A DNA stretch of 53,196 bases from a virus (Duplodnaviria > Caudoviricetes). Shown here piece after piece: positions 1 to 53,196 of this stretch. Where the stretch lies: IMG/VR virus record IMGVR_UViG_3300020045_008062, positions 1 through 53,196 of that record; one strand, 5' to 3'. The position numbers and the translations under genes are program-made. How positions within the stretch are numbered: the first letter of the stretch is position 1; each line of letters opens with the position of its first letter. Under the pieces are notes generated by a model. That model was given only the letters and a program-made list of their open reading frames with translations, was not told the origin of the DNA and did not search any database.

Positions 1-17
1 CCGTTACCAGTAATATT
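1..17 (+). repeat. Partial attC-like site (R' end only; window starts here)
   Basis: CC-GTTACCAGTAATATT; reverse complement matches AATACTACTGGTAAC at 265-279 (14/15). Confidence 0.8.
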
Positions 18-249
18 ACACCTGACAATGTGCATATTTACCATCTTTTAAATTTGAACACATTGTTGAAGATAATTCCCAAATTCTTTCTAAAGCGTAA
101 AAGTCTTTGTGTGTAATCCCATTATTATTGTTGTACTCCATCATTTCGTAGTACTTTTTTTCAACTTCTTTTTGAAATTCAAATACTCTTTCATTTTTTG
201 TGCCTTCTAATTGGAAGAACTCTACTGCAATTTGTTTTAGTGTTGCCAT
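16..249 (-). CDS. Cassette 1 hypothetical protein (77 aa)
   Basis: ORF fills the space between GTTA (3) and TAAC (279). Confidence 0.75.
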   Translation of the reverse strand: MATLKQIAVEFFQLEGTKNERVFEFQKEVEKKYYEMMEYNNNNGITHKDFYALERIWELSSTMCSNLKDGKYAHCQV

Positions 250-272
250 TACGTTTTTGTTTAAAATACTAC

Positions 273-403
273 TGGTAACATATGCTACACAATAGCTGGG
301 TTAATTGTTTAATTTAAAGTCTGTTTTGCACTTGAATAATTTGTCTTAAATCGATGTATGGTTTTGTGCTTAACCAGCCATCGTGTAGCATCAGCCGTTA
401 GTA
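273..403 (+). repeat. attC-like site 1
   Basis: TGGTAAC...ATGCTACACAATAGCTGG / CCAGCCATCGTGTAGCAT...GTTAGTA. Confidence 0.85.
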
Positions 404-418
404 GCAAGACTACGTTTG

Positions 419-703
419 CTACTCAAAACTACTATTGTCCACACGTTTTGAAAGTCTATCTAACTTAAACGCTTTAGTTTCATCTACTCTTGATTGTACC
501 GATGGAAACATATATTTTATTTGTTCAATCATAATTTCAACATCTGCTATTTCTCCGCACATATCAACAAATCTTTCTTCTGTTGAGTTTCTTACGAATT
601 TTCTAACGGCTAATGCTAATTCCGTAGCTTCTTCTTGAGCCATTTCTAATTGAGCTGTTTGCCCCCATTTTTCAATTGTTTTTTTGTAAATTTCGTTTGA
701 CAT
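419..703 (-). CDS. Cassette 2 MazG-like nucleotide pyrophosphohydrolase
   Basis: QEEATEL...GEIADV acidic helical motifs of the MazG-like/all-alpha NTP-PPase superfamily. Confidence 0.75.
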   Translation of the reverse strand: MSNEIYKKTIEKWGQTAQLEMAQEEATELALAVRKFVRNSTEERFVDMCGEIADVEIMIEQIKYMFPSVQSRVDETKAFKLDRLSKRVDNSSFE

Positions 704-750
704 TTTATTTAGTTTTTATAATTAATATTCGTTTTAATGAGCCGTCCAGC

Positions 751-829
751 TACTAACACTCGCTACAAGCTAGTAGCCGAAAGTGTGTTGGCGCATAGGC
801 TACCATCTTGTAGCGAGATAACGTTATGT
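751..829 (+). repeat. attC-like site 2 (short type)
   Basis: TACTAAC-A-CTCGCTACAAG / CTTGTAGCGAG-ATAAC-GTTATGT, perfect 11-bp arm. Confidence 0.85.
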
Positions 830-847
830 GATATACTACTATTGTGG

Positions 848-1105
848 TTAAAATGGCAAACCATCGTCGATATATTTATTTTCACAACTATAAGGTATTT
901 TCATAATTAATGGCGGTTCTGGAGAAAATGAATTTGGTATATTAATTCCTTTTTGTTCCATTGTGTAAATCAAAATAGAAATATAATGATTCAATCCTCT
1001 ATCATCATAATCATCTTCGTATTGTTGTCTTGATATTTCTAAACATTCAGCTTCATTATAACAATCTCTTCCTAATACGCCTCCACAAGCTCTACAGTTT
1101 GCCAT
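848..1105 (-). CDS. Cassette 3 hypothetical protein, N-terminal Cys cluster
   Basis: CRAC...C...C; ORF fits cassette. Confidence 0.7.
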   Translation of the reverse strand: MANCRACGGVLGRDCYNEAECLEISRQQYEDDYDDRGLNHYISILIYTMEQKGINIPNSFSPEPPLIMKIPYSCENKYIDDGLPF

Positions 1106-1139
1106 TTCAATAATATTTAGTTGTTAATAATCGTACATC

Positions 1140-1274
1140 ACATAACACACGTTTGCAGTTATGGCTTATATCGTTTTTTCCTGCGGAAAAACCTCTGATA
1201 ATCTTAATTTGGGTTTGTGCTTGTTTATTTTAGTCCTGAATCCCGCCACATCTGCAAGCGTGGGAACGTTAGCA
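1140..1274 (+). repeat. attC-like site 3
   Basis: ACATAAC-A-CACGTTTGCAG / CTGCAAGCGTG-GGAAC-GTTAGCA. Confidence 0.85.
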
Positions 1275-1279
1275 AACAG

Positions 1280-1474
1280 CTACACAACATTGTCGTTAAG
1301 AAGCTTAATTGCTTTTTGAAGTTCAATTATTTCTAATTCAATATTTGCTAAATCATTTTGCAGAAATTCGTGGTCGCAAACCATTTCGCAGTTATCAAAA
1401 TCGGAATCTTTTTTATCCCATTCTTTACCTAATAATTCAATTCTTTTTTCAAGAACTTTAATTGCTTGTTTCAT
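1280..1474 (-). CDS. Cassette 4 small coiled-coil hypothetical protein
   Basis: 64-aa ORF fits cassette. Confidence 0.7.
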   Translation of the reverse strand: MKQAIKVLEKRIELLGKEWDKKDSDFDNCEMVCDHEFLQNDLANIELEIIELQKAIKLLNDNVV

Positions 1475-1498
1475 ATTTTATCTGAATAAAAGCCGATT

Positions 1499-1634
1499 TG
1501 CTAACAGTGGTTTTGCGAGATTTTCGGCACTTGGTTTAATTTAATTTTTAGTTTGTACTTGTTGTTTTTTTTGCTCAACTGAAAGATTACGCATCCTTAA
1601 CCGAAAATCCTCGCAAAGCCACGAACCGTTAGGG
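1499..1634 (+). repeat. attC-like site 4
   Basis: TGCTAAC-A-GTGGTTTTGCGAGATTTTCGG / CCGAAAATCCTCGCAAAGCCAC-GAACC-GTTAGGG. Confidence 0.85.
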
Positions 1635-1642
1635 ATAACCGC

Positions 1643-2044
1643 CTATTGGAGTCCAAAAACAGAATCTAAAAAGACAGTATCATTAGTGAATGAATCACAT
1701 TCTTTTGGCATTGGTTCTTGGTATTCAAAAGTTTCAGGATGTTTTTCTAAAGCACTTGATTTTTCAATTGAAAACGGATACATTATTTTATCAAATTTTG
1801 TGCATTTAAAAGCACTAACTTGTTTTGTTGAATATTGAGTTTCCCCATTTTCATAATCATAGCCAATTTCAAAATCAACATCAATATCTTCTCTTTCTAA
1901 AAACACACATCCATTAGTACACGCTCTGAAATTTAATGGATTGCAATTGCATTTTTCTTCGTGATTTGCCATTGCGTGTTTTCGCTTCAATTCCTTTTTA
2001 CAAAAATCACATTTGTAAATTGTAACATTTTCTATTGTTTTCAT
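1643..2044 (-). CDS. Cassette 5 Cys-rich, putative zinc-finger protein
   Basis: YKCDFCKK...HEEKC motif plus further Cys. Confidence 0.7.
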   Translation of the reverse strand: MKTIENVTIYKCDFCKKELKRKHAMANHEEKCNCNPLNFRACTNGCVFLEREDIDVDFEIGYDYENGETQYSTKQVSAFKCTKFDKIMYPFSIEKSSALEKHPETFEYQEPMPKECDSFTNDTVFLDSVFGLQ

Positions 2045-2073
2045 AAATTATAGATTAGTAATTCGTGGTATAT

Positions 2074-2207
2074 CCCTAACACGTGCTTGTATCAATGGCT
2101 TGCATCGTTTTTTCCTTCGGAAAAACCGCTGGCGGGATTAATCAGGATTTATCGGTTGTGCTTGGGTCTTGAATCTTAGCCACTGAGACAAGCACACAAC
2201 GTTATAA
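2074..2207 (+). repeat. attC-like site 5
   Basis: CCCTAAC-AC-GTGCTTGT / ACAAGCAC-ACAAC-GTTATAA. Confidence 0.85.
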
Positions 2208-2208
2208 C

Positions 2209-2415
2209 TCATTTTGCAGAACGTTTGCTAGTAACTAGTTCGGTTTTGTGAATTACTATATCTTCATTTTCAAAAGGAGTTTCAAAATTCCATCTATCGA
2301 GAGTAAATTTTGAAACTTTCAAAGTTTTTCCCCAAGTCGTGCAAAGTATTGTTAAATCCCCGTAATGAAAATGAAACCCACTTGCCTTAAATTCTAAATG
2401 ATATATCTTTCTCAT
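2209..2415 (-). CDS. Cassette 6 ORF3, hypothetical
   Basis: 68-aa ORF, stop 8 nt from GTTA. Confidence 0.7.
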   Translation of the reverse strand: MRKIYHLEFKASGFHFHYGDLTILCTTWGKTLKVSKFTLDRWNFETPFENEDIVIHKTELVTSKRSAK

Positions 2416-2573
2416 TACTTGTGATTTTTAATTAATTCAATTGCATTATTAATTTCTTTTAACTTTTGATTTCTTTGTGCAAAATCATCAGGATAATTTT
2501 CGGGTTTCCATCCTTTTAAACAATCTTCTAAAAGTTTCTTTTCTCTCTCAAGAATAAATATTGCTTCGTTCAT
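2415..2573 (-). CDS. Cassette 6 ORF2, hypothetical (52 aa, absent from ORF track)
   Basis: MNEAIFILEREKKLLEDCLKGWKPENYPDDFAQRNQKLKEINNAIELIKNHK; TAATG overlap with the next ORF. Confidence 0.65.
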   Translation of the reverse strand: MNEAIFILEREKKLLEDCLKGWKPENYPDDFAQRNQKLKEINNAIELIKNHK

Positions 2574-2579
2574 GGCTTA

Positions 2580-2792
2580 TTAAGTTAAGGCGATTATTTG
2601 ACCATTAATCCATTGGCTATAAGTTTTTGGGTTTCCAAATTTTTCTACATTATCCGAATTTCTTTTATGATATTCAGTATATCCTTTTTTTGAATCTTGT
2701 ATAAATTCCTCGAAAGATTTATAAGCATTTCTACAAGCTATAAATAGACATTTTAAATCATCTTGGTCGATAGTAAAATCAATATTTCCCAT
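2580..2792 (-). CDS. Cassette 6 ORF1, hypothetical
   Basis: 70-aa ORF downstream of an internal promoter. Confidence 0.7.
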   Translation of the reverse strand: MGNIDFTIDQDDLKCLFIACRNAYKSFEEFIQDSKKGYTEYHKRNSDNVEKFGNPKTYSQWINGQIIALT

Positions 2793-2841
2793 AATACAAA
2801 TTGTTTAGAAATTGCCGTGAATATCACTTCCTTATTTCTTT

Positions 2842-2891
2842 TACAAATATAGTAATTAATATTTGTATAAACCTAATTAAATTACAAATAT
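2842..2891 (-). promoter_or_regulatory. Cassette-internal Bacteroidota-type promoter with operator-like repeats
   Basis: TATATTTG on minus strand (2844-2851); TACAAATAT/ATATTTGTA/TACAAATAT at 2842, 2859, 2883. Confidence 0.6.
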
Positions 2892-2927
2892 TATTAATAA
2901 AAATTGTAAATAAATAAAAAAAACGAG

Positions 2928-3058
2928 TGATAACAACGGTTTGGAGCGATTGCAAGATTAGGATTTACTCGAATTATTAGAAAGAAAATTAAAAACTGTC
3001 TTGTACTTTTAAAAATAGTCTTGAATTTTTGCAACCGCACCAAGCCGATACGTTACCA
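2928..3058 (+). repeat. attC-like site 6
   Basis: TGATAAC-AA-CGGTTTGG / CCAAGCCG-ATAC-GTTACCA. Confidence 0.8.
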
Positions 3059-3064
3059 GTAATG

Positions 3065-3391
3065 CTACGAAACCTGCTCAACAACCTTTATTTTTTGTCT
3101 TTTTGTCTCCCAATCTCTCATTGCTATTATTTTAGCATCAAAATATACTCTCTGTTTATTATTACAGACCACATAAGCTATGTAATGTGTTTTTTCTGCG
3201 TAGTAATCTTTTAAAGCTATTACAGGAAAATCTTTTTCACTTCCTTCAGTGCCTTCCATCACAACTACGTGATACATATAATAATTTCTATTTCTTGACC
3301 TGAAATGAAATACTTTCAATAAATCTCCAACTAATATTTGTTTTCCAGATTGGTCAAAATATGTGTTGTTTTTTCTTTCTTCTAATGTCAT
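3065..3391 (-). CDS. Cassette 7 protein with YopX-like motif
   Basis: DQSGKQILVGDLL resembles the DxxGkeIyeGDil motif of phage YopX proteins. Confidence 0.55.
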   Translation of the reverse strand: MTLEERKNNTYFDQSGKQILVGDLLKVFHFRSRNRNYYMYHVVVMEGTEGSEKDFPVIALKDYYAEKTHYIAYVVCNNKQRVYFDAKIIAMRDWETKRQKIKVVEQVS

Positions 3392-3427
3392 TTTTTAAGT
3401 TTTAAATTTGTAAATAAAAAGCACTAC

Positions 3428-3504
3428 TGGTAACAATCACTATACTGCAGTTGCCGAATATACTAAACCGCATAGGCAACCGCAGTATAGTTTTAACGTT
3501 ATCA
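3428..3504 (+). repeat. attC-like site 7 (short type)
   Basis: TGGTAAC...ACTATACTGC / GCAGTATAGT...GTTATCA. Confidence 0.85.
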
Positions 3505-3510
3505 GGAATA

Positions 3511-3699
3511 CTACGATTTGTTTTCATAGATGATTTTTTCAATATCATTGGCGATTTTATCCATCATTTCAGATATTTTCAACTCATACCTTTGTTCCTC
3601 TTTATTTTCATTTATTGAACTCCAATCAAAATATTGATTTGCATATTCTTTTAATTTGTTTTTGTAATCTATTAGTTTTTGTTCTTGAATACTATTCAT
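3511..3699 (-). CDS. Cassette 8 hypothetical protein
   Basis: 62-aa ORF fits cassette. Confidence 0.7.
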   Translation of the reverse strand: MNSIQEQKLIDYKNKLKEYANQYFDWSSINENKEEQRYELKISEMMDKIANDIEKIIYENKS

Positions 3700-3729
3700 A
3701 ATATATTTAGTTTTAAATTGCCGTACTCC

Positions 3730-3865
3730 TGATAACAGTTGCTATAAGAGATTTTCGGCATAGTGATTAATCGTTTTAATTGTGTGTATTTGCGATGATT
3801 TGGCAAAGTGGAAAGATGGTTTTATACTCATCCGAAAATCCTCTTATAGCAACAATCCGTTATAG
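3730..3865 (+). repeat. attC-like site 8
   Basis: TGATAAC-A-GTTGCTATAAGAGATTTTCGG / CCGAAAATCCTCTTATAGCAAC-AATCC-GTTATAG; 21-bp arm with one extra C. Confidence 0.88.
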
Positions 3866-3894
3866 CTTATGGCTCGATTTCGGTTTTTAAGAAC

Positions 3895-4206
3895 TTAATC
3901 AAAAATATTAGCTACGTGACTTCTATATTCCTCTTCTTTAAAAATGAATAAATAAGTACTGTAAAATGGTAGCCAAATATGAAGTGTGCTTCCTGCTAAA
4001 TAGTTATAAATAGGATTTTTAAAATGGTCTATAGGGTAATCAAAATCATTTTCCCATTGCATAATTGAATAGAATATATGTTTAAATATTCCTAACAATC
4101 CAATCATTGCAATCATATAGGAAATTATATTTAACGGAAACCAAACCATTAAAGCTGTAAATAAGAAAATTATAGGGCTAACAATTATTTTAAATATTAT
4201 TTTCAT
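3895..4206 (-). CDS. Cassette 9 small membrane protein
   Basis: Long hydrophobic N-terminal segments. Confidence 0.7.
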   Translation of the reverse strand: MKIIFKIIVSPIIFLFTALMVWFPLNIISYMIAMIGLLGIFKHIFYSIMQWENDFDYPIDHFKNPIYNYLAGSTLHIWLPFYSTYLFIFKEEEYRSHVANIFD

Positions 4207-4238
4207 AACACGTTTAGTTTTTAAAAACCCACCACAAG

Positions 4239-4372
4239 CTATAACAGCAATTTGTGGTAATTCGGGTATTAGTTATTAATTTATTTTTGGTCTTGCATTT
4301 GTAAAATCTGTCTTGCATCGGTACTTTAGGATTTATTTACCCCAAACTACCACAAGTTGCAGGACGTTATCA
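4239..4372 (+). repeat. attC-like site 9
   Basis: CTATAAC-A-GCAATTTGTGGTA / TACCACAAGTTGC-AGGAC-GTTATCA. Confidence 0.85.
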
Positions 4373-4726
4373 GCAACCGCCCACAATCATCGTAAAGTGT
4401 TCACGACAAACATAAGCTGTTAAGTTATGGCGCATTCTATCGGGGTCGTCCGATGGAATTTCTTCTCCTAATTTATTGGTTGCATCTTTTCCGCAAACTG
4501 AACAAATCTCTCCTTCACAACTTCCAGAAATAAAATAAGGTGCAAATAATTCTAATGCTTTTGGTCTTTTGAAAGTATCAAATCCAATAGTTTTTGTTTG
4601 TGCATTTTGAGGAAAATAAGTATAATAATTTCTTTGAGGTATCCATCCATATTCGTCCATAAGTCCATTAGCTATGTCAAAATAATTTCCAAAAACCTCT
4701 TGTAATTTTTCTTTAGGTGGTAACAT
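4370..4726 (-). CDS. Cassette 10 protein with C-terminal CxxC...CxxH zinc-finger-like motif
   Basis: CSVC...CREH; stop codon lies inside the R' core. Confidence 0.7.
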   Translation of the reverse strand: MLPPKEKLQEVFGNYFDIANGLMDEYGWIPQRNYYTYFPQNAQTKTIGFDTFKRPKALELFAPYFISGSCEGEICSVCGKDATNKLGEEIPSDDPDRMRHNLTAYVCREHFTMIVGGC

Positions 4727-4761
4727 ATAAATAGTTTTAAAATTAGTATTAAGTGGTATGC

Positions 4762-4852
4762 TGATAACAAATGATAATGGCTATTTGCACAACCATTTTC
4801 CTCCGAAACAACTTCTGTAGTGGCAAACAGCCACTATCATCCACCGTTAGTG
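4762..4852 (+). repeat. attC-like site 10 (distal end of array)
   Basis: TGATAAC...TGATAATGGCT / AGCCACTATCA...GTTAGTG. Confidence 0.85.
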
Positions 4853-4855
4853 GCA

Positions 4856-4926
4856 ATATTCAAATGTACAAAACATACGTTTACAAATTACAAACAAAAG
4901 TAATTTATAGTAATTATAAATAGTGT
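4856..4926 (-). promoter_or_regulatory. Phage promoter pointing into the cassette array, with upstream palindromic box
   Basis: TACATTTG -7 element (4861-4868); 32 bp identical to 44205-44236; AATTTATAGTAATTATAAATA at 4902-4922. Confidence 0.7.
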
Positions 4927-5648
4927 TATTGAATATTTCCAAAATGACAAAATACATTTTCATAAATTCCTAATTCCTTGTTAATTGAATTACGCAAACG
5001 AATACGATCTTCTAAACTGTATTCGTTGTCAGATTTTTTTAATCTAATTGCGATTTTAGAAGCTAATTTATAAATCTGATGGTATTGTTCATTTGTGATG
5101 TGTAATTGCGGTGTTCGCCTCAAATCGGCTATAAAAGTCATATATTCCTGTCCATACTCTTTTACAATTCCTTCACGCAATAAACCATCATCATTTTGAA
5201 AGTGGTTTGATTGCGCGCTTTGTCTGTGGATGTTGTGTAAATTGAATCGGATTGTTTGATTGCCTCCACGCGCAAATACGTGACCTGCATCATACTTTTT
5301 TGCTGGATAATCACGAGCCAAACAATTCAAACCTTTATCAATTAATCTAACGATTAGATTTACTTTTACCTGAAGTTCTTTTGACCAATTTTTAGCAGCT
5401 TCTTTATCTTTTTTATGCTGAACTTTGTCAAATGGCTTAATTACTGGGCTTTCTTTTTCAACGGCTTTTTTTGTGATTCGCATTGCTTTATTCATATATA
5501 ATTGGCCTGCCTCGGTATCCATTAACCATTTTGGAAAACAACACATTTTCCCTAAACCAAACTTTCTGTTTTCTATTTTTACCATTTTGCCGCATCCTTC
5601 AAATCCGAATGCGGCATCTTGACCATTACATATTTTCTCTTTGATCAT
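4926..5648 (-). CDS. ninG: NinG/Rap-like recombination endonuclease
   Basis: VRLID...C...DAGH...IRFNLHNIHRQ...N motif of lambda NinG family. Confidence 0.75.
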   Translation of the reverse strand: MIKEKICNGQDAAFGFEGCGKMVKIENRKFGLGKMCCFPKWLMDTEAGQLYMNKAMRITKKAVEKESPVIKPFDKVQHKKDKEAAKNWSKELQVKVNLIVRLIDKGLNCLARDYPAKKYDAGHVFARGGNQTIRFNLHNIHRQSAQSNHFQNDDGLLREGIVKEYGQEYMTFIADLRRTPQLHITNEQYHQIYKLASKIAIRLKKSDNEYSLEDRIRLRNSINKELGIYENVFCHFGNIQ

Positions 5649-6658
5649 TAGAAAAGTTCTTTAGGTTTCTCAACAAAATTAAAACGTTTGGTAACTTCTT
5701 TCATATTCAAAATTGCCTGTTTGAAATAGCTGTCTTTTAATTCAATTCCAATTGCCTTTCTTCCCATAGATACAGGACTGAAAACCTCGCTTCCAACTCC
5801 CATAAAAGGAGTTAAAACAACCTCTCCAGGGTTTGAATACAACTCAATTAAACGATCAATTACATCTAACTGTAAAGGATGCACGTGTTTCTCGTCGTCC
5901 TCTTCTTTTGAATCCCTAAAAGGCAAAACATTATCAATTCTGATATCATCCCAAACAGATGAGGCATAACGCTGCCAAACATAATGATTCAATTTAGTAA
6001 TTTTATCATCTTCATTTATGTTATTTAGATGATCCCACAATTGAACTTCATTTAAATTTGAATTATTGGCATTATTCCAAGCTCTTAGAATATTTGGCAA
6101 TATTGGAATTTCACCAGCGTAATGATTCATTCCGTATTTGTGAGTTACAGGAACTTCATTTTCTCCTTTTTTAGTGAAAATTAAAACATAGTCCGGCATT
6201 GCTGTAAAACATTTTGTAGAATCTTCAACAATGAATTTATGCATTAAAGATTGAACCATTGTACGCATACGCACTTTTAAAGGTTCTTTCCAAATTGTAA
6301 TTCTGTTACGATATTCAAAACCATACTTTTCATGAATCTTAATAATTTCATGAGGGAAATCCCAAAGACGGCATGTATTATCAAAAACATCTGTCGCATG
6401 AACTGCAGTTATTCGCCCTAGCTTTGTTACTCTTGAAATTTCTTTTACCAAATAATCGTATTGTTCTAAAAATTGTTCTTTGGTTTCACAATTTGAAAAG
6501 TCATTTTCTGAACTTGAATAATTATAAAGTCCGGCGAAAGGCGGAGAATATACCGATAAATCAATGCTTTTATCTTCTAGTGTAGGCAAAACCAACATGC
6601 AATCTGAATTATAAATTGCGTAATTTTCTGTAATAACTTGATCTTTTACTTTGCTCAT
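5648..6658 (-). CDS. DNA N4-cytosine/N6-adenine methyltransferase (beta class)
   Basis: SPPF catalytic motif precedes TPFMGVGS SAM-binding motif. Confidence 0.9.
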   Translation of the reverse strand: MSKVKDQVITENYAIYNSDCMLVLPTLEDKSIDLSVYSPPFAGLYNYSSSENDFSNCETKEQFLEQYDYLVKEISRVTKLGRITAVHATDVFDNTCRLWDFPHEIIKIHEKYGFEYRNRITIWKEPLKVRMRTMVQSLMHKFIVEDSTKCFTAMPDYVLIFTKKGENEVPVTHKYGMNHYAGEIPILPNILRAWNNANNSNLNEVQLWDHLNNINEDDKITKLNHYVWQRYASSVWDDIRIDNVLPFRDSKEEDDEKHVHPLQLDVIDRLIELYSNPGEVVLTPFMGVGSEVFSPVSMGRKAIGIELKDSYFKQAILNMKEVTKRFNFVEKPKELF

Positions 6659-6661
6659 TTT

Positions 6662-8029
6662 TTAAAATTTTGGTTTAATAATATCTTTGTTAAATTCTTT
6701 TTTGATGTGTGTGAATGACTTATTTACATTTTCGGTTAGTCGCCTATGTAATTCAATTGCTTTTTTTGTTTTTTGCTCCAAAGCTTCTATAACTCTGGTT
6801 TGTCCATCCGAAATAACCATATCAATAACAACATCATTTTTCTGTCCAAATCGCCAAAAACGTCTTATTGCTTGATAATATTGCTCATAACTCCAAGTAG
6901 GGAAAAATACAGAATGATTGCAATGCTGCCAATTCAAACCCATTGAAGTCATTTTTGCTTTAGTTATTAATCTTTCAATTTCTCCATTGGCAAAAGCTAA
7001 AAGAATTTCTTCTTTTTTATCAATGGATTGGGATCCAATTATTTCAACCGCTTTTGAATCTGAATGTTTTAAAATAGTGCTTTCGTTATTAGTATTACAC
7101 CAATAAACAGAAGTTTTCCCATCTGCTAAATTTACTGCTTTTTCACAACGTTTTTCTTCTGTCTGTTTTTGCTCGTGCCTTACTTCTGTCATTGATTTGG
7201 CAATTGGCGTAAACATTTGAATTTGGCCGCTAATATCAATAAGACTTTGATTTTCTACAATATGCCTGTTTGTAATTAATTTTGGTAAAACATATCTATC
7301 ATTTGAAAATCCTAAATCAGAAGGCATTTTTGCCATAATTGACCACTGATTAACCCACGCAAAGAAATCATTTTCAGCATGTGGCTTTAAATAGAATTTT
7401 TCGCCAATATTTCTATTTGTTGAATCTACTGAATTTTGATTGTTTTTGAAAAACTTTCCTAACATGTCCATGTAACCCATGTAACCTAAAAACTCTGATG
7501 TAGTTCCTAATTCAATAAAATCATTTGGCGAAGGAGTTGCAGTTGATCCAAAACGATATTTTATTTTCTTTACGAAAGCCGTAATTTGACTTTTAATTTT
7601 TCCATCAAAATTTTTAAGAATAGAACTTTCATCTAAAATAACACATTCAAAATCTTTCGGATCCAAATAATGTAATCTTTCATAATTACAAATTACAATT
7701 TTTTTTGTGAATTTACCATCTTTGGTAATTTCGATATCATCTGTAATATTTCGCTCTAAAGCTTCTTTTATGAATTGAAAGCCAACGGCCAAAGGAGTTA
7801 ATATTAAAACTCTTTTGTTTGTGTGTTGTATTACATTCCTGGCTATTGACAATTGAATTAATGTTTTTCCAAGTCCCGTATCTAAAAAGTTGGCAATCCT
7901 TCCTTTTTCAATTGATTTTTCAATAACATAAGATTGAAAATCAAAAGCGCAATCAGGGATAAAATTTGCCTTGAATCCAAAATTACCTATTGAATGGCGT
8001 TTTGATTCTAAAAATTGGTTATAATCCAT
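6662..8029 (-). CDS. SF2/SNF2-related helicase
   Basis: DTGLGKT, LDESS, TATP, GLNWQ, QAIRRFWRFGQ motifs. Confidence 0.88.
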   Translation of the reverse strand: MDYNQFLESKRHSIGNFGFKANFIPDCAFDFQSYVIEKSIEKGRIANFLDTGLGKTLIQLSIARNVIQHTNKRVLILTPLAVGFQFIKEALERNITDDIEITKDGKFTKKIVICNYERLHYLDPKDFECVILDESSILKNFDGKIKSQITAFVKKIKYRFGSTATPSPNDFIELGTTSEFLGYMGYMDMLGKFFKNNQNSVDSTNRNIGEKFYLKPHAENDFFAWVNQWSIMAKMPSDLGFSNDRYVLPKLITNRHIVENQSLIDISGQIQMFTPIAKSMTEVRHEQKQTEEKRCEKAVNLADGKTSVYWCNTNNESTILKHSDSKAVEIIGSQSIDKKEEILLAFANGEIERLITKAKMTSMGLNWQHCNHSVFFPTWSYEQYYQAIRRFWRFGQKNDVVIDMVISDGQTRVIEALEQKTKKAIELHRRLTENVNKSFTHIKKEFNKDIIKPKF

Positions 8030-37988: not shown

Positions 37989-38223
37989 TTGCTCTCAAGC
38001 TTTTTAAATCAGTTTTCTTTTCAGTTGTTTCTTCAATCATTATTACATCATCTGGAACAGTACTTGAAGGAACCGCAATTCTATAAGCTTTTACATATTC
38101 TGCATCGACTTTATCTCGTGGGATAGCGAGAAAAACATGATTGTCTGCAAAATCTTCTTTAAACTCTGCAAAGGACCTGTTATAATCCTTTGCAAAAGTT
38201 ATTTTCCCATATACCTTACTCAT
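37945..38223 (-). CDS. Hypothetical tail-region protein
   Basis: 92-aa ORF. Confidence 0.5.
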   Translation of the reverse strand: MSKVYGKITFAKDYNRSFAEFKEDFADNHVFLAIPRDKVDAEYVKAYRIAVPSSTVPDDVIMIEETTEKKTDLKSLRANGNIPATTKESEKS

Positions 38224-38225
38224 AA

Positions 38226-39104
38226 TTAAGGCGTAACGGTTATTGATAATGGTTCTATAGCCTCATATGACATTCCAGCCGCGATAACAACACCGTCTAA
38301 TTCTACAGTAAACCCTGTATCGAATCCTGTTCCTGTTAATGTATAAGCTCCTGTTGAATCAGGCGCGGTAAAAGTAATAGTTTGAGCAGTTCCTGAAATA
38401 TTTTTAACAACAAGATCACCCGAAACTAATGACTTAACGGTACCGCCACCTCCGGCACAACCATCTAAAACTCTAACTTTAATATTCGTTGCAGTTGCTG
38501 AAACTTGCACTAAACTAACATCAAAAATACCATATAATTCGGATGCTCTAAAATCAGGAATAAAGATTGCTCCATCTTGCTCTAATTCAGTGTAGTCTCC
38601 ATAAGTTGTGGTAAGTAAAGTACTAGAAGGACGGTCTGATGTAGGATCTAATCGTTTTCCAACATCAAGAATTACGGATTGTCCAAAAATTTCTCCATCG
38701 TCATTTTTAACCCCTTTTACTTTTCCATCTTCTGTAAATTCGAACTGTCTTAATTCGGATCCATTAAAAGTTGTCAATGCGGCATGGCTACATAAACCAA
38801 GCATTGCAGTATAAGTTGTTATTTTTTTACCGTTGGCAGTTTTATAACGCTTTACTCTTCCTTCAAAGAAAGTATCTTCAGTATTAGCTGTTGTGATTTC
38901 TTCAGGATCATAAAGCGGCCACATTTGTTTTGCTGCAATAGCTTCTTCCCATTTAGTAATATCTTTTGCATCCGCAATAGTATCAAACTTAAAATCAGGA
39001 AGCGTAACAACAGGCTTTGTCATAATGCCCTCTAAGCATTGCTCTTTTGCCCCTGTATTTGCCTTTCCTTTTTCTGCTTTTCCGCATTCTTGGTAAACAC
39101 TCAT
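38226..39104 (-). CDS. Major tail (tube) protein
   Basis: 292 aa; position; beta-rich C-terminal Ig-like region. Confidence 0.65.
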   Translation of the reverse strand: MSVYQECGKAEKGKANTGAKEQCLEGIMTKPVVTLPDFKFDTIADAKDITKWEEAIAAKQMWPLYDPEEITTANTEDTFFEGRVKRYKTANGKKITTYTAMLGLCSHAALTTFNGSELRQFEFTEDGKVKGVKNDDGEIFGQSVILDVGKRLDPTSDRPSSTLLTTTYGDYTELEQDGAIFIPDFRASELYGIFDVSLVQVSATATNIKVRVLDGCAGGGGTVKSLVSGDLVVKNISGTAQTITFTAPDSTGAYTLTGTGFDTGFTVELDGVVIAAGMSYEAIEPLSITVTP

Positions 39105-52339: not shown

Positions 52340-53140
52340 TTATATTGCGAATTGTAAGGTTTGTAACTTTTTACTTGATGTATGGGTGTATATTTCGGTT
52401 GTTTTTCGGGAACTATGCCCTAATAAATCGCCTATCAATTTTAGATCAGTTCCTTTCTCGTATAATCCTGTTGCTGCACTATGTCGCAAAGTATGCATGT
52501 GATATTGCTTACCGAGATATTTTTTTACGATTTGGTTACAGCTTCCGGATGAATATTGAAATCCAAACTGGCCATTGAAAAGGTATTCTTTAGGCAAATA
52601 TTCGACATAATAGAGCCTGATTATTTCTCTTGTTGTTGGTGTAAGCGGTACTATTCTATCTTTTTTACCTTTGGCCGCACGAATATTTATCTGCATCATC
52701 GGGCTGTTTATATCTGACAATTTTAAATTTAAAACTTCTGAAACTCTCAATCCAACGGATGAAGTCAATGCAATTATTGCTTTGTGTTTTTTATTTTCGA
52801 TTTTATCTATCATCGAAACTAAATCAGTTACATCTATTACCAGCGGGATTTTCTTTTCTTTTTTGGCATACTGGATGTATTCAAATTTTCGGTTTTGCTT
52901 AATGGTTAATACATAAAATTTCTTTATTGCCGAATGCATTGCGTTTTGAGAATTTACTTCTTTGGCGTTTAGCAGATAGTTCTTGATTTCGTCAGCCGAT
53001 ATGTGTTTTGGGCTGTCTTTTTCTTTGAAGTAATTCAAGAATAGTTTTATTTGGCTACTATAGTTTTTTATTGTCTCTTTTGAGAAGTGAATGAAGTTCA
53101 AATCTCGCTCATAGTTTTGGATGTAGTTTGCGGAATTCAT
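52340..53140 (-). CDS. Tyrosine recombinase, integron-integrase-like
   Basis: SAM-like N-terminus (SKETIKNY); GLRVSE (R), KGKKDR (K), HTLRHS.AT (HxxR), LLGH, TTEIYTH (Y); no arm-binding domain. Confidence 0.92.
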   Translation of the reverse strand: MNSANYIQNYERDLNFIHFSKETIKNYSSQIKLFLNYFKEKDSPKHISADEIKNYLLNAKEVNSQNAMHSAIKKFYVLTIKQNRKFEYIQYAKKEKKIPLVIDVTDLVSMIDKIENKKHKAIIALTSSVGLRVSEVLNLKLSDINSPMMQINIRAAKGKKDRIVPLTPTTREIIRLYYVEYLPKEYLFNGQFGFQYSSGSCNQIVKKYLGKQYHMHTLRHSAATGLYEKGTDLKLIGDLLGHSSRKTTEIYTHTSSKKLQTLQFAI

Positions 53141-53196
53141 AGGCTTAGTTGTTGTGGTTGTTGGTTTTGTGGGTGGTTGAATAAATGTAGACGTTA
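53141..53196 (+). other. Candidate attI-like primary recombination site
   Basis: Directly upstream of the integrase start; ends AC-GTTA like the attC R' cores but has no hairpin; preceded by GGTTG-rich tract. Confidence 0.55.

Follow-up and report, generated by a model that had tools for sequence, protein, structure and literature searches.

The stretch of DNA analysed here (the window: IMG/VR virus record IMGVR_UViG_3300020045_008062, 53,196 bases) carries at positions 3-4849 what is probably an integron-type cassette array of a tailed phage, which is likely recombined by a Xer-like tyrosine recombinase, encoded at 52340-53140, at an attI-like site at 53141-53196. A sequence-only reading of this DNA had noticed that each cassette is bracketed by its own inverted repeat and had taken this as a footprint of circular cassette intermediates; the observation is confirmed as real, and the reading was right in kind. 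Bracketing repeats are a known property of integrons, and what is new is the system to which they belong. The evidence lies in the anatomy of the sites, the covariation of arms and stems, a conserved attI-like junction, the turnover of the arrays and the occurrence of single cassettes in other contexts, all of which can be seen directly in the sequences compared.

All ten inverted-repeat pairs were found in place when the sequence was read and the arms were compared by script. The left arms start at positions 3, 397, 823, 1268, 1628, 2201, 3052, 3498, 3859 and 4366, and the right arms run into TAAC cores that end at 279, 757, 1146, 1505, 2080, 2934, 3434, 3736, 4245 and 4768. Of these pairs, seven match perfectly over 10 bases and two over 9 (397/749 and 1268/1497), and 2201/2925 has a single mismatch, at position 6; the complementarity reaches 14-15 nucleotides (nt), beyond the 10 nt noted earlier. 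The array had been placed at 3-4768, of which the ten units stand whereas the end coordinate does not, as the tenth hairpin extends the array to 4849. The cassettes and hairpins, with their open reading frames (ORFs) and the ORF lengths in amino acids (aa), are the following:

4-275, minus strand: body of cassette 1, bracket CCAGTA; ORF 16-249, 77 aa, for which Pfam and PHROG gave no match
276-400, minus strand: hairpin s1, 125 nt, attC-like, 83% identical to a hairpin of the related locus L011
401-753, minus strand: body of cassette 2, bracket GTAGC; ORF 419-703, 94 aa, MazG-like NTP pyrophosphohydrolase (phrog_2245, E 7e-26)
754-826, minus strand: hairpin s2, 73 nt
827-1142, minus strand: body of cassette 3, bracket TGTGAT; ORF 848-1105, 85 aa
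1143-1271, minus strand: hairpin s3, 129 nt, found alone in other metagenome contigs (records 3 and 18)
1272-1501, minus strand: body of cassette 4, bracket GCAAA; ORF 1280-1474, 64 aa
1502-1631, minus strand: hairpin s4, 130 nt, found alone in a 2138-nt contig of another sample (record 4)
1632-2076, minus strand: body of cassette 5, bracket GGGATA; ORF 1643-2044, 133 aa, Cys-rich
2077-2204, minus strand: hairpin s5, 128 nt, with an identical copy in a 152-nt contig (record 12)
2205-2930, minus strand: body of cassette 6, bracket TAACTC / TCACTC (one mismatch); ORFs 2209-2415, 2415-2573 and 2580-2792
2931-3055, minus strand: hairpin s6, 125 nt
3056-3430, minus strand: body of cassette 7, bracket CCAGTA (as cassette 1); ORF 3065-3391, 108 aa
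3431-3501, minus strand: hairpin s7, 71 nt
3502-3732, minus strand: body of cassette 8, bracket TCAGGA; ORF 3511-3699, 62 aa
3733-3862, minus strand: hairpin s8, 130 nt
3863-4241, minus strand: body of cassette 9, bracket TAGCTT; ORF 3895-4206, 103 aa, hydrophobic
4242-4369, minus strand: hairpin s9, 128 nt
4370-4764, minus strand: body of cassette 10, bracket TCAGCA; ORF 4370-4726, 118 aa, with its stop codon within the bracket
4765-4849, minus strand: hairpin s10, 85 nt, the most distant from the recombinase

The pairing follows a rule, which the sequence-only reading had proposed and which a set of 32 cassettes bears out: the arm that follows GTTA pairs with the arm before the next TAAC and not with that of its own hairpin. 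The set comprises the 10 cassettes of the window and 22 from nine related loci (L005-L011, L013 and L016); left out were L004, a 99.6% copy of L005, the loci L003, L012 and L015, which have no sites, L017, in which no proximal TAAC was found, and a reversed array of L011. Over the six variable bases, the arm before the next TAAC pairs at 5.2 positions on average, with 18 perfect matches, as opposed to 1.8 positions and a single perfect match for the arm of the same hairpin, and random re-pairing of the arms gave a mean of 2.2/6 and a maximum of 2.9 in 2000 trials. The bracket bases covary freely between cassettes. Further inwards, position 11 is complementary in only one of the 32 cassettes and is usually G facing T on the minus strand, a G.T wobble, while positions 12, 13 and 14 pair again in 27, 25 and 21 cassettes, respectively. 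The rule failed in four of the 32 cassettes, three of which have exact partners of 9-10 nt at intermediate positions, so that the site finder missed sites there. The window has no excess of GTTA as such (464 occurrences against about 504 expected), and the signal therefore resides in the hairpins and the pairing.

All cassette ORFs are on the minus strand, which is also that of the recombinase, and they lie upstream of the recombinase gene. Pfam returned no match for any of the 8 cassette ORFs searched, and PHROG gave a clear match for 2 of 10 and a marginal one for a third (E 0.006). The three ORFs of cassette 6, the last of which (2580-2792) matches phrog_20997, a family of unknown function, are tightly packed and accompanied by a 130-nt AT-rich palindromic stretch (2840-2915), and this cassette has the sole mismatched bracket; it may have arisen by the fusion of units, or it may be a small operon, for instance of a toxin-antitoxin-like kind. 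Cassettes 1 and 7 have a common bracket, GTTACCAGTA / TACTGGTAAC (window 3-12 and 3052-3061), around unrelated ORFs, and the same bracket is also present on a third cassette, in L011 (8240-8464), and behind another hairpin in metagenome contigs.

The effect of restoring the brackets was assessed by joining the end of each unit to its own hairpin and start by script and folding the product with DNA parameters. As the sequence-only reading had anticipated, circularisation at G↓TTA on the plus strand (the arrow marks the point of exchange or joint) yields an outer stem, of 12-15 base pairs (bp), in all ten units and on both strands. This stem averages 14.0 bp in the circles, as opposed to 3.4 bp on the minus and 1.1 bp on the plus strand in the integrated form, and the folding free energy falls from -19.4 kcal/mol when integrated to -26.5 kcal/mol when circular, with joins to wrong partners staying at -19.9 (n=90). 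A crossover at GTTA, which had also been suggested, is supported by the related loci, where the last cassette abuts a hairpin-less xxxxxxTAAC↓G beside the recombinase gene, a junction that pins the crossover to TAA↓C of the minus strand, equivalent to G↓TTA of the plus strand. Contig joints with sides of about 20 nt were considered as excision products and were treated instead as similar sites in other arrays.

The junction beside the recombinase gene is occupied by the following feature:

53141-53196, minus strand: attI-like site; TAACG and then some 50 nt of conserved, A/C-rich sequence up to the ATG of the recombinase gene, with no hairpin

A stretch of the form TAACG(Y)nnn-ATTTAyTCAAC... 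is found 55 nt before the ATG in ten loci (L003-L011 and L013). The six bases preceding the TAAC differ between loci, and in each locus they are complementary to the first bases of its last cassette. An attI site that has received insertions has this appearance. Relatives of the recombinase at 85-94% identity are present in ten IMG/VR contigs and in one contig of a Bacteroidota metagenome-assembled genome, and in nine of these close relatives (L004-L011 and L013) an array lies upstream of the recombinase gene, with the same type of hairpin, co-directional and with different cassettes; of the others, L003 extends over 172 nt upstream only and L012 starts inside the recombinase gene. Arrays also precede more distant recombinases that are 49% (L016) and 31% (L017) identical. 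A search of genome contigs gave two loci, one of them irrelevant (23% identity), and a search of metagenome contigs gave nine, of which three were useful; scanning IMG/VR for exact patterns led back to the same 9 contigs.

The module occupies different places in different phages. It lies between terS and terL in the L003-L012 phage group, L008 included, and after a NinG-like gene in the window, and the combination of recombinase and attI-like site is portable between phages. The TAA stop codon of terS is also the TAA of the distal TAAC core in L008 (9150-9620), L005, L006 and L010, and because this stop lies inside the TAAC, the insertion point overlaps the end of an essential phage gene. In L011 (4542-9765), two arrays face each other, and the centre (7366-7700) is an inverted duplication of a terS-like 3' end (GTTACCCATGACTA ... 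TAGTCATGGGTAAC); the left array has 7 sites, with ORFs on the other strand, and within the locus its outer end is not accompanied by a recombinase. These facing arrays may reflect a true inversion between sites or an assembly chimera.

The hairpins between the cassettes are imperfect, 71-130 nt long and all in one orientation, and there is one in each of the ten TAAC-to-GTTA gaps. On the minus strand, the 5' side consists of TAAC, a G, about four further unpaired bases and a stem interrupted by a mismatch or by a bulged G; a variable loop is followed on the 3' side by the return arm, a single unpaired T and GTTA. Both strands of the 53 kb were scanned with a finder model (TAAC..GTTA, a 12-bp inner stem and an asymmetric spacer), which at a strict threshold recovers 8 of the 10 array sites and nothing else in the 53 kb, with 0-4 matches in 20 shuffles (about one each), and which at a looser threshold recovers all ten together with 3 weak matches elsewhere in the window. 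When the window is combined with ten loci, among them L017 and the reversed array of L011, TAACG is present in all 43 sites and TGTTA in 42. The inner 12-bp stems of these sites pair at 10.95 of 12 positions, a figure that is partly circular since the sites outside the window were chosen by a pairing filter (the window ten, which were set by the coordinates of the sequence-only reading, score 10-12), and they do so though their arms are only 31% identical between sites; arms taken from different sites pair at 5.05 of 12. Structure is accordingly conserved without sequence across sites, which is an attC-like anatomy, and the lengths compare with hairpins of about 57-141 nt in integrons.

The minus strand folds more stably in 10/10 sites, both integrated and circularised, and the R stem is flanked by two invariant non-Watson-Crick positions, which are G.T on the minus strand and A.C on the plus strand. 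RNAalifold found no consensus structure in a MAFFT alignment of the ten sites, because the variable loops spoil the alignment, and anchored arm comparisons were used in place of whole-site alignment. A search of Rfam returned a single chance microRNA match (E 0.43). The hairpins form families that are mosaic between samples, and an s1-like hairpin retains its downstream bracket in L011 and in one metagenome contig.

The content of the arrays turns over while the surrounding genome is maintained. The flanks of L006 and L007 are 97% and 98% identical, yet the interval of about 1.6 kb between the terS stop and the attI-like stretch shares nothing, and in L008 this interval holds a single cassette. 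A similar picture is provided by the cultured Polaribacter phages Freya_1 to Freya_10, whose recombinase is 34% identical and lies at a position that shifts between the records, from 50 to 4147. Six records were compared (Freya_1, 5, 6, 8, 9 and 10; L024-L031), and these isolates are 99.4-100% identical over the aligned flanks, the sole differences between them being modules that lie immediately before the recombinase gene. Their right breakpoints are all at AAC↓ACCCCTATAAC, about 50 nt before the ATG, and their left breakpoints all follow an AAC; in Freya_1 the flank is joined straight to the conserved stretch, forming an empty site. The independent arrival of the units, which the sequence-only reading had proposed, is thus supported both by unrelated arrays on near-identical backbones and by isolates that differ by modules.

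Of the Freya modules, that of Freya_6 (record 477-918) is missing from Freya_10. The finder of TAACG...TGTTA hairpins recognised no sites in the Freya phages, from which the breakpoints alone were used; some Freya sites look like GTT...AAC hairpins, and the site anatomy differs in this branch. The Freya genomes measure 44.0-48.9 kb, and in the available text of the paper describing them the gene is called an integrase, with neither 'integron' nor 'cassette' being used (PMC8776804).

With regard to single cassettes in other contexts, positions 1-5200 of the window were compared with contigs from four runs, each of a different study and each bearing the label wastewater metagenome. The expectation that units travel with their own flanks was upheld for cassette 1 (3-297) and cassette 9 (3863-4249, record 7) and not for the ORF of cassette 5, which is taken up below. 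The metagenome match to cassette 1 begins exactly at position 3, with unrelated sequence before it. Single hairpins sit inside otherwise unlike contigs, such as the 2138-nt record 4, which matches positions 1502-1631 only. None of the contigs in the four runs compared spans the array, and the best share of the array's words in any public run is 0.13 (20 rows, 9 studies).

The candidate enzyme of the system is encoded next to the attI-like site:

52340-53140, minus strand: XerA-like tyrosine recombinase of 266 aa, candidate cassette recombinase; Pfam Phage_integrase (105 bits) and a SAM-like N domain

The best NCBIfam match of this protein is XerA_Arch at 164.5 bits, under the cut-off of 220, and its scores against XerC (145.4 bits, cut-off 335) and XerD (134.8 bits, cut-off 330) are both below threshold as well. 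The integron integrase (IntI) model TIGR02249 gives 124.3 bits (cut-off 265) with profile positions 173-254 unmatched, and PRK15417 gives 67.8 bits (cut-off 435); no IntI-type gene was found in the window, where this sub-cut-off hit is the sole match to TIGR02249. In the alignment with VchIntIA (2a3v), residues 15-168 correspond to 14-171 and residues 211-255 to 262-306, with 48 residues fewer at the place of the IntI insert. The alignment to XerA is continuous, with the motifs aligned, and the score against 4a8e is 89.5 bits. An AlphaFold2 model (predicted local distance difference test score of 88) has only coil at residues 182-197, where the IntI insertion would be, and its best structure match is XerA 5hxy (Foldseek E 7e-15), followed by 2a3v. 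R132, K157, H216, R219, H242 and Y251 are invariant in 34 relatives, and the catalytic set of tyrosine recombinases is present.

Among the window ORFs of at least 50 aa, that of the recombinase is the only one with a homologue in 14 related loci. Among 401 Bacteroidota genomes in the sample, a single one has a close homologue. The family is large in metagenomes, where the best 120 of more than 120 clusters are 54-94% identical and 260-292 aa long; among these best 120, some carry the name XerD in their source, and a Flavobacterium sp. member is entered as 'tyrosine recombinase/integron integrase'. As for a dif-type role like that of XerA, XerC or XerD, the phage context and the adjoining array would argue for a different one. 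In L013, a second integrase of 398 aa with an arm-DNA-binding domain is encoded (2070-3266) besides the Xer-like recombinase, which is therefore probably not the lysogeny integrase in at least this one element. The L013 element combines two differently built tyrosine recombinases, the Xer-like one with a single cassette, with a LuxR-type regulator and a 1105-aa primase. A giant site that has the recombinase gene as its loop and is closed by a GTTA following the stop codon was also considered and discarded, as that GTTA lies inside the ORF and is unconserved.

The resemblance to integrons extends to most of the DNA features. A tyrosine recombinase gene adjoins a hairpin-less primary site, which is followed by an array of small, mostly single-ORF units; the imperfect hairpins of 71-130 nt end in AAC...GTT and are built of an R stem, a bulged L stem and an unpaired spacer; strands cross over at G↓TT, and the first bases of a cassette pair with the far arm of its own site, forming a split R box. 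In both systems the hairpin sequence is variable while the structure is kept, and the array content turns over. Comparative evidence also places the joining of new cassettes at the site beside the recombinase gene, as at attI. The sequence-only reading had nevertheless assumed a canonical integron, and this assumption has to be given up. The recombinase lacks the IntI insertion and stays under the cut-offs of both integron-integrase models, and the ORFs, which are inverted relative to attC, come after the hairpin and are read towards the attI-like site, co-directional with the recombinase. The cassette-specific R stem measures 10-15 bp as opposed to 7, the spacer is strongly asymmetric, with about 5 bases on one side facing about 1 on the other, and the arrangement of unpaired bases is mirrored: on the strand that is exchanged according to the geometry, the extra bases belong to the AAC arm. 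Finally, the carrier is a phage.

With archaeal XerA and bacterial XerC and XerD, the recombinase shares the best sequence and fold matches, the length, the two-domain build and the absence of an arm-binding domain, but it scores below the XerA_Arch cut-off and is encoded beside phage cassette arrays and not with a chromosomal dif. Integration of the CTX-phage type involves XerCD, which has no IntI insertion and acts on a folded single-stranded attP hairpin, and it thus provides a precedent for the insertion being dispensable for some folded substrates; that reaction integrates a whole phage at dif by means of host enzymes, with no cassettes or arrays. In the pdif modules of Acinetobacter plasmids, genes are bounded by double-stranded sites for XerC/XerD that are 28 bp long and alternate in orientation, and long hairpins are lacking, whereas the boundaries in the window are hairpins of 71-130 nt in a single orientation with cassette-specific complementary arms.

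Read on the minus strand, the sense strand of all genes, a unit of the array comprises a hairpin TAACG...TGTTA of 71-130 nt, a specific arm of 10-15 nt, one to three small ORFs and a complementary arm ending in TAA. In the free circle the arms would pair and lengthen the TAAC/GTTA core into an R stem of 14-16 bp on the minus strand, above which an asymmetric internal loop (about 5 nt opposite about 1 nt) and the bulged L stem would make up a complete attC-like folded site. Recombination of the circle with the attI-like site, at TAA↓C of the minus strand or G↓TTA of the plus strand, would insert it beside the recombinase gene, and the product of strand exchange would be resolved by replication, as in integrons. 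Since insertion would split the R stem and leave each arm beside a different hairpin, the pairing with the next site would be accounted for. The Xer-like recombinase would act as the catalyst, with the folded minus strand as its presumed substrate and circles as intermediates.

Several observations weigh against this interpretation. The recombinase does not have the insertion that defines IntI, which is described as essential for integron function in the part of the literature available (PMC8138268), and the handling of folded hairpins by this enzyme is hence putative. The extra bases are on the AAC arm of the minus strand, the strand exchanged according to the attI geometry, and in canonical attC sites, as far as the accessible text of one study goes, extra bases on the AAC arm mark the top strand, which is not recombined (PMC5027507). 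The ORFs follow their own hairpin and are read towards attI, the reverse of integron cassettes. Neither a circle junction nor an excision product was seen in the public runs compared, which consist of assembled contigs only. The last cassette of L016, the fourth failure of the pairing rule, has no matching bracket and is unexplained, and elsewhere the ORF of cassette 5 is found between termini that differ (record 5). A hairpin common to L005 and L007 has different brackets on both sides, so that the linkage of hairpin and cassette is tentative, and the first unit of L007 has no hairpin. This unit (135-513), which follows the terS stop, reads GGGTAA↓TATTTATT ... GTAGAATAAC with no matching bracket, and it may be a decayed or irregular insertion; L005 carries the following hairpin of L007 (91% identical) directly after terS.

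A last point of this kind concerns the ends of the contig. The minus strand opens with TAACGTCTACATTTATTCAACC, the attI-like site, and the other end, ..TACTGGTAACGG, is the end of cassette 1; on the plus strand, both ends (window 1-6 and 53186-53196) stop at CGTTA. The two ends share TAACG only, one following base mismatches and there is no clean overlap, so that the adjacency of array and recombinase in the genome of the window is deduced from the arrangement in its relatives. The attI-like site may be the point where a circular genome was opened, or the assembly may have broken there owing to variants at the site.

An integron-type array recombined by the Xer-like enzyme remains the preferred interpretation, and from it a bolder one may be tentatively derived, which has a substantial chance of being right, though less than an even one. 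The system would be a second kind of integron, with a compact Xer-like recombinase devoid of the IntI insertion, circular cassettes and mirrored single-stranded hairpins, forming a portable platform of about 0.9 kb in flavobacterial phages, whose small accessory genes it would reshuffle. It may be a surviving pre-IntI stage or an independent invention, and it may be active enough to diversify the isolates of one cultured phage.

The most serious competitor, though an unlikely one, regards the array as a piece of an ordinary integron, known as a CALIN (cluster of attC sites without an integron integrase), which was acquired from a bacterial host and is recombined in trans by a host IntI, the Xer-like enzyme being unrelated to it and serving as a lysogeny integrase or dimer resolvase. 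Phages P12002L (Polaribacter), TJE1 and PH101 carry CALINs according to the available part of Qi et al. 2023 (PMC9892861), in which attC-type hairpins flank accessory genes of tailed phages, including a Polaribacter siphophage, as they do in the window. The arrays described in that part of the paper have 2-4 predicted sites with no nearby integrase or are fragments of host integrons, and a dedicated Xer-like recombinase or attI-like site is not among the features it reports. In P12002L (L036, 38035-38936), two hairpins of the window type, at 38035-38090 and 38879-38936, of 56 and 58 nt and with TAACA...CGTTA ends, flank the DNA methyltransferase gene gp54, next to which there is a Mom-like gene; this phage also has a block of small ORFs between terS and terL, and no annotated integrase.

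A host-derived fragment would agree with the lack of the insertion called essential in the accessible literature (PMC8138268), with the integrase-less phage CALINs already published, of which an attC of P12002L was recombined by IntI1 as reported in the same available text (PMC9892861), and with the window-type hairpins around a methyltransferase gene in a phage that has no annotated integrase. It does not readily explain why arrays are found directly upstream of, and co-directional with, members of one recombinase family in the window and 11 loci spanning 31-94% identity, why a conserved attI-like stretch abuts a variable bracket matched to the cassette, or why the turnover of the arrays has one end fixed at that stretch. 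Moreover, the unpaired bases are on the side opposite to that selected by IntI, and the window has no IntI-type gene. No publication describing phages in which a Xer-like recombinase, an attI-like site and a cassette array occur together was found, in a search whose coverage left most subscription journals outside; by its anatomy such an array would probably be filed as a CALIN, masking the adjacent Xer-like gene.

Alternatively, the hairpins could be intercistronic RNA or transcription elements, such as terminators or processing and stabilising stems, with the brackets as long-range RNA pairing and the modules being swapped by homologous recombination. The greater stability of the minus strand, which is the sense strand, in all ten sites, integrated and circularised, would suit such a role, as would the two invariant non-Watson-Crick positions, both G.T (G.U in RNA) on that strand, and the mosaic hairpin families. 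Nonetheless, the breakpoints fall at the core of 4-5 nt, outside the hairpin homology, the site proximal to the recombinase has no hairpin and is yet the fixed end of every indel, and the empty site of Freya_1 is clean. The free covariation of the brackets is as expected of a structural DNA site, and Rfam gave nothing but the chance match. An RNA function of this kind is therefore considered improbable. Hardly credible is the notion that each unit is a small transposable element, similar to a miniature inverted-repeat transposable element or an insertion sequence, piled up at a hotspot: every unit does have terminal inverted repeats of 10-15 nt ending in TTA/TAA, but these differ between units whereas a transposase needs conserved ends, a transposase was not found in the searches of the cassette ORFs, structured hairpins in a single orientation lie between the units, and one end of the array is fixed beside the recombinase.

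The genome around the array is that of a complete siphophage, filed as linear in IMG/VR with a CheckV completeness estimate of 100%, and all of its genes outside the array are on the minus strand. It encodes a terminase large subunit, a portal, a major head protein, a tape measure, a tail fibre, helicases and a NinG-like protein, and the carrier is probably a tailed phage of Flavobacteriia. The distal side of the array is bordered by the following features:

4850-4925, minus strand: distal flank, a non-coding spacer between the stop of the NinG-like gene and the array, whose final bases, ..TTGCCACTAA, stand where the end of a cassette would be
4926-5648, minus strand: NinG-like gene, which precedes the array module in the window

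No partner for the distal bracket CCACTAAC was found within the 53-kb window, and the possibility that the whole phage is one bracketed unit was dismissed on this ground. Beside the NinG-like gene, at 5648-8029, are a DNA methyltransferase-like ORF (336 aa) and a SNF2-type helicase (455 aa, phrog_62).

Single-strand recombination in integrons has so far been tied to the IntI insertion and to one cassette layout, and tools that define integrons by this insertion would overlook the whole class. If a Xer-like enzyme does serve an array with every DNA hallmark of an integron, the need for the insertion is put to the test, and the cultured pair of Freya and Polaribacter makes the idea directly testable. 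The system would also be a concrete candidate for the origin of integrons from Xer recombinases. For the phages themselves, it would mean that they own gene-capture platforms, beyond the stray carriage of attC sites, and it would explain the hypervariable islands of small ORFs in flavobacterial phages, as in the size range of 44.0-48.9 kb among the Freya genomes.

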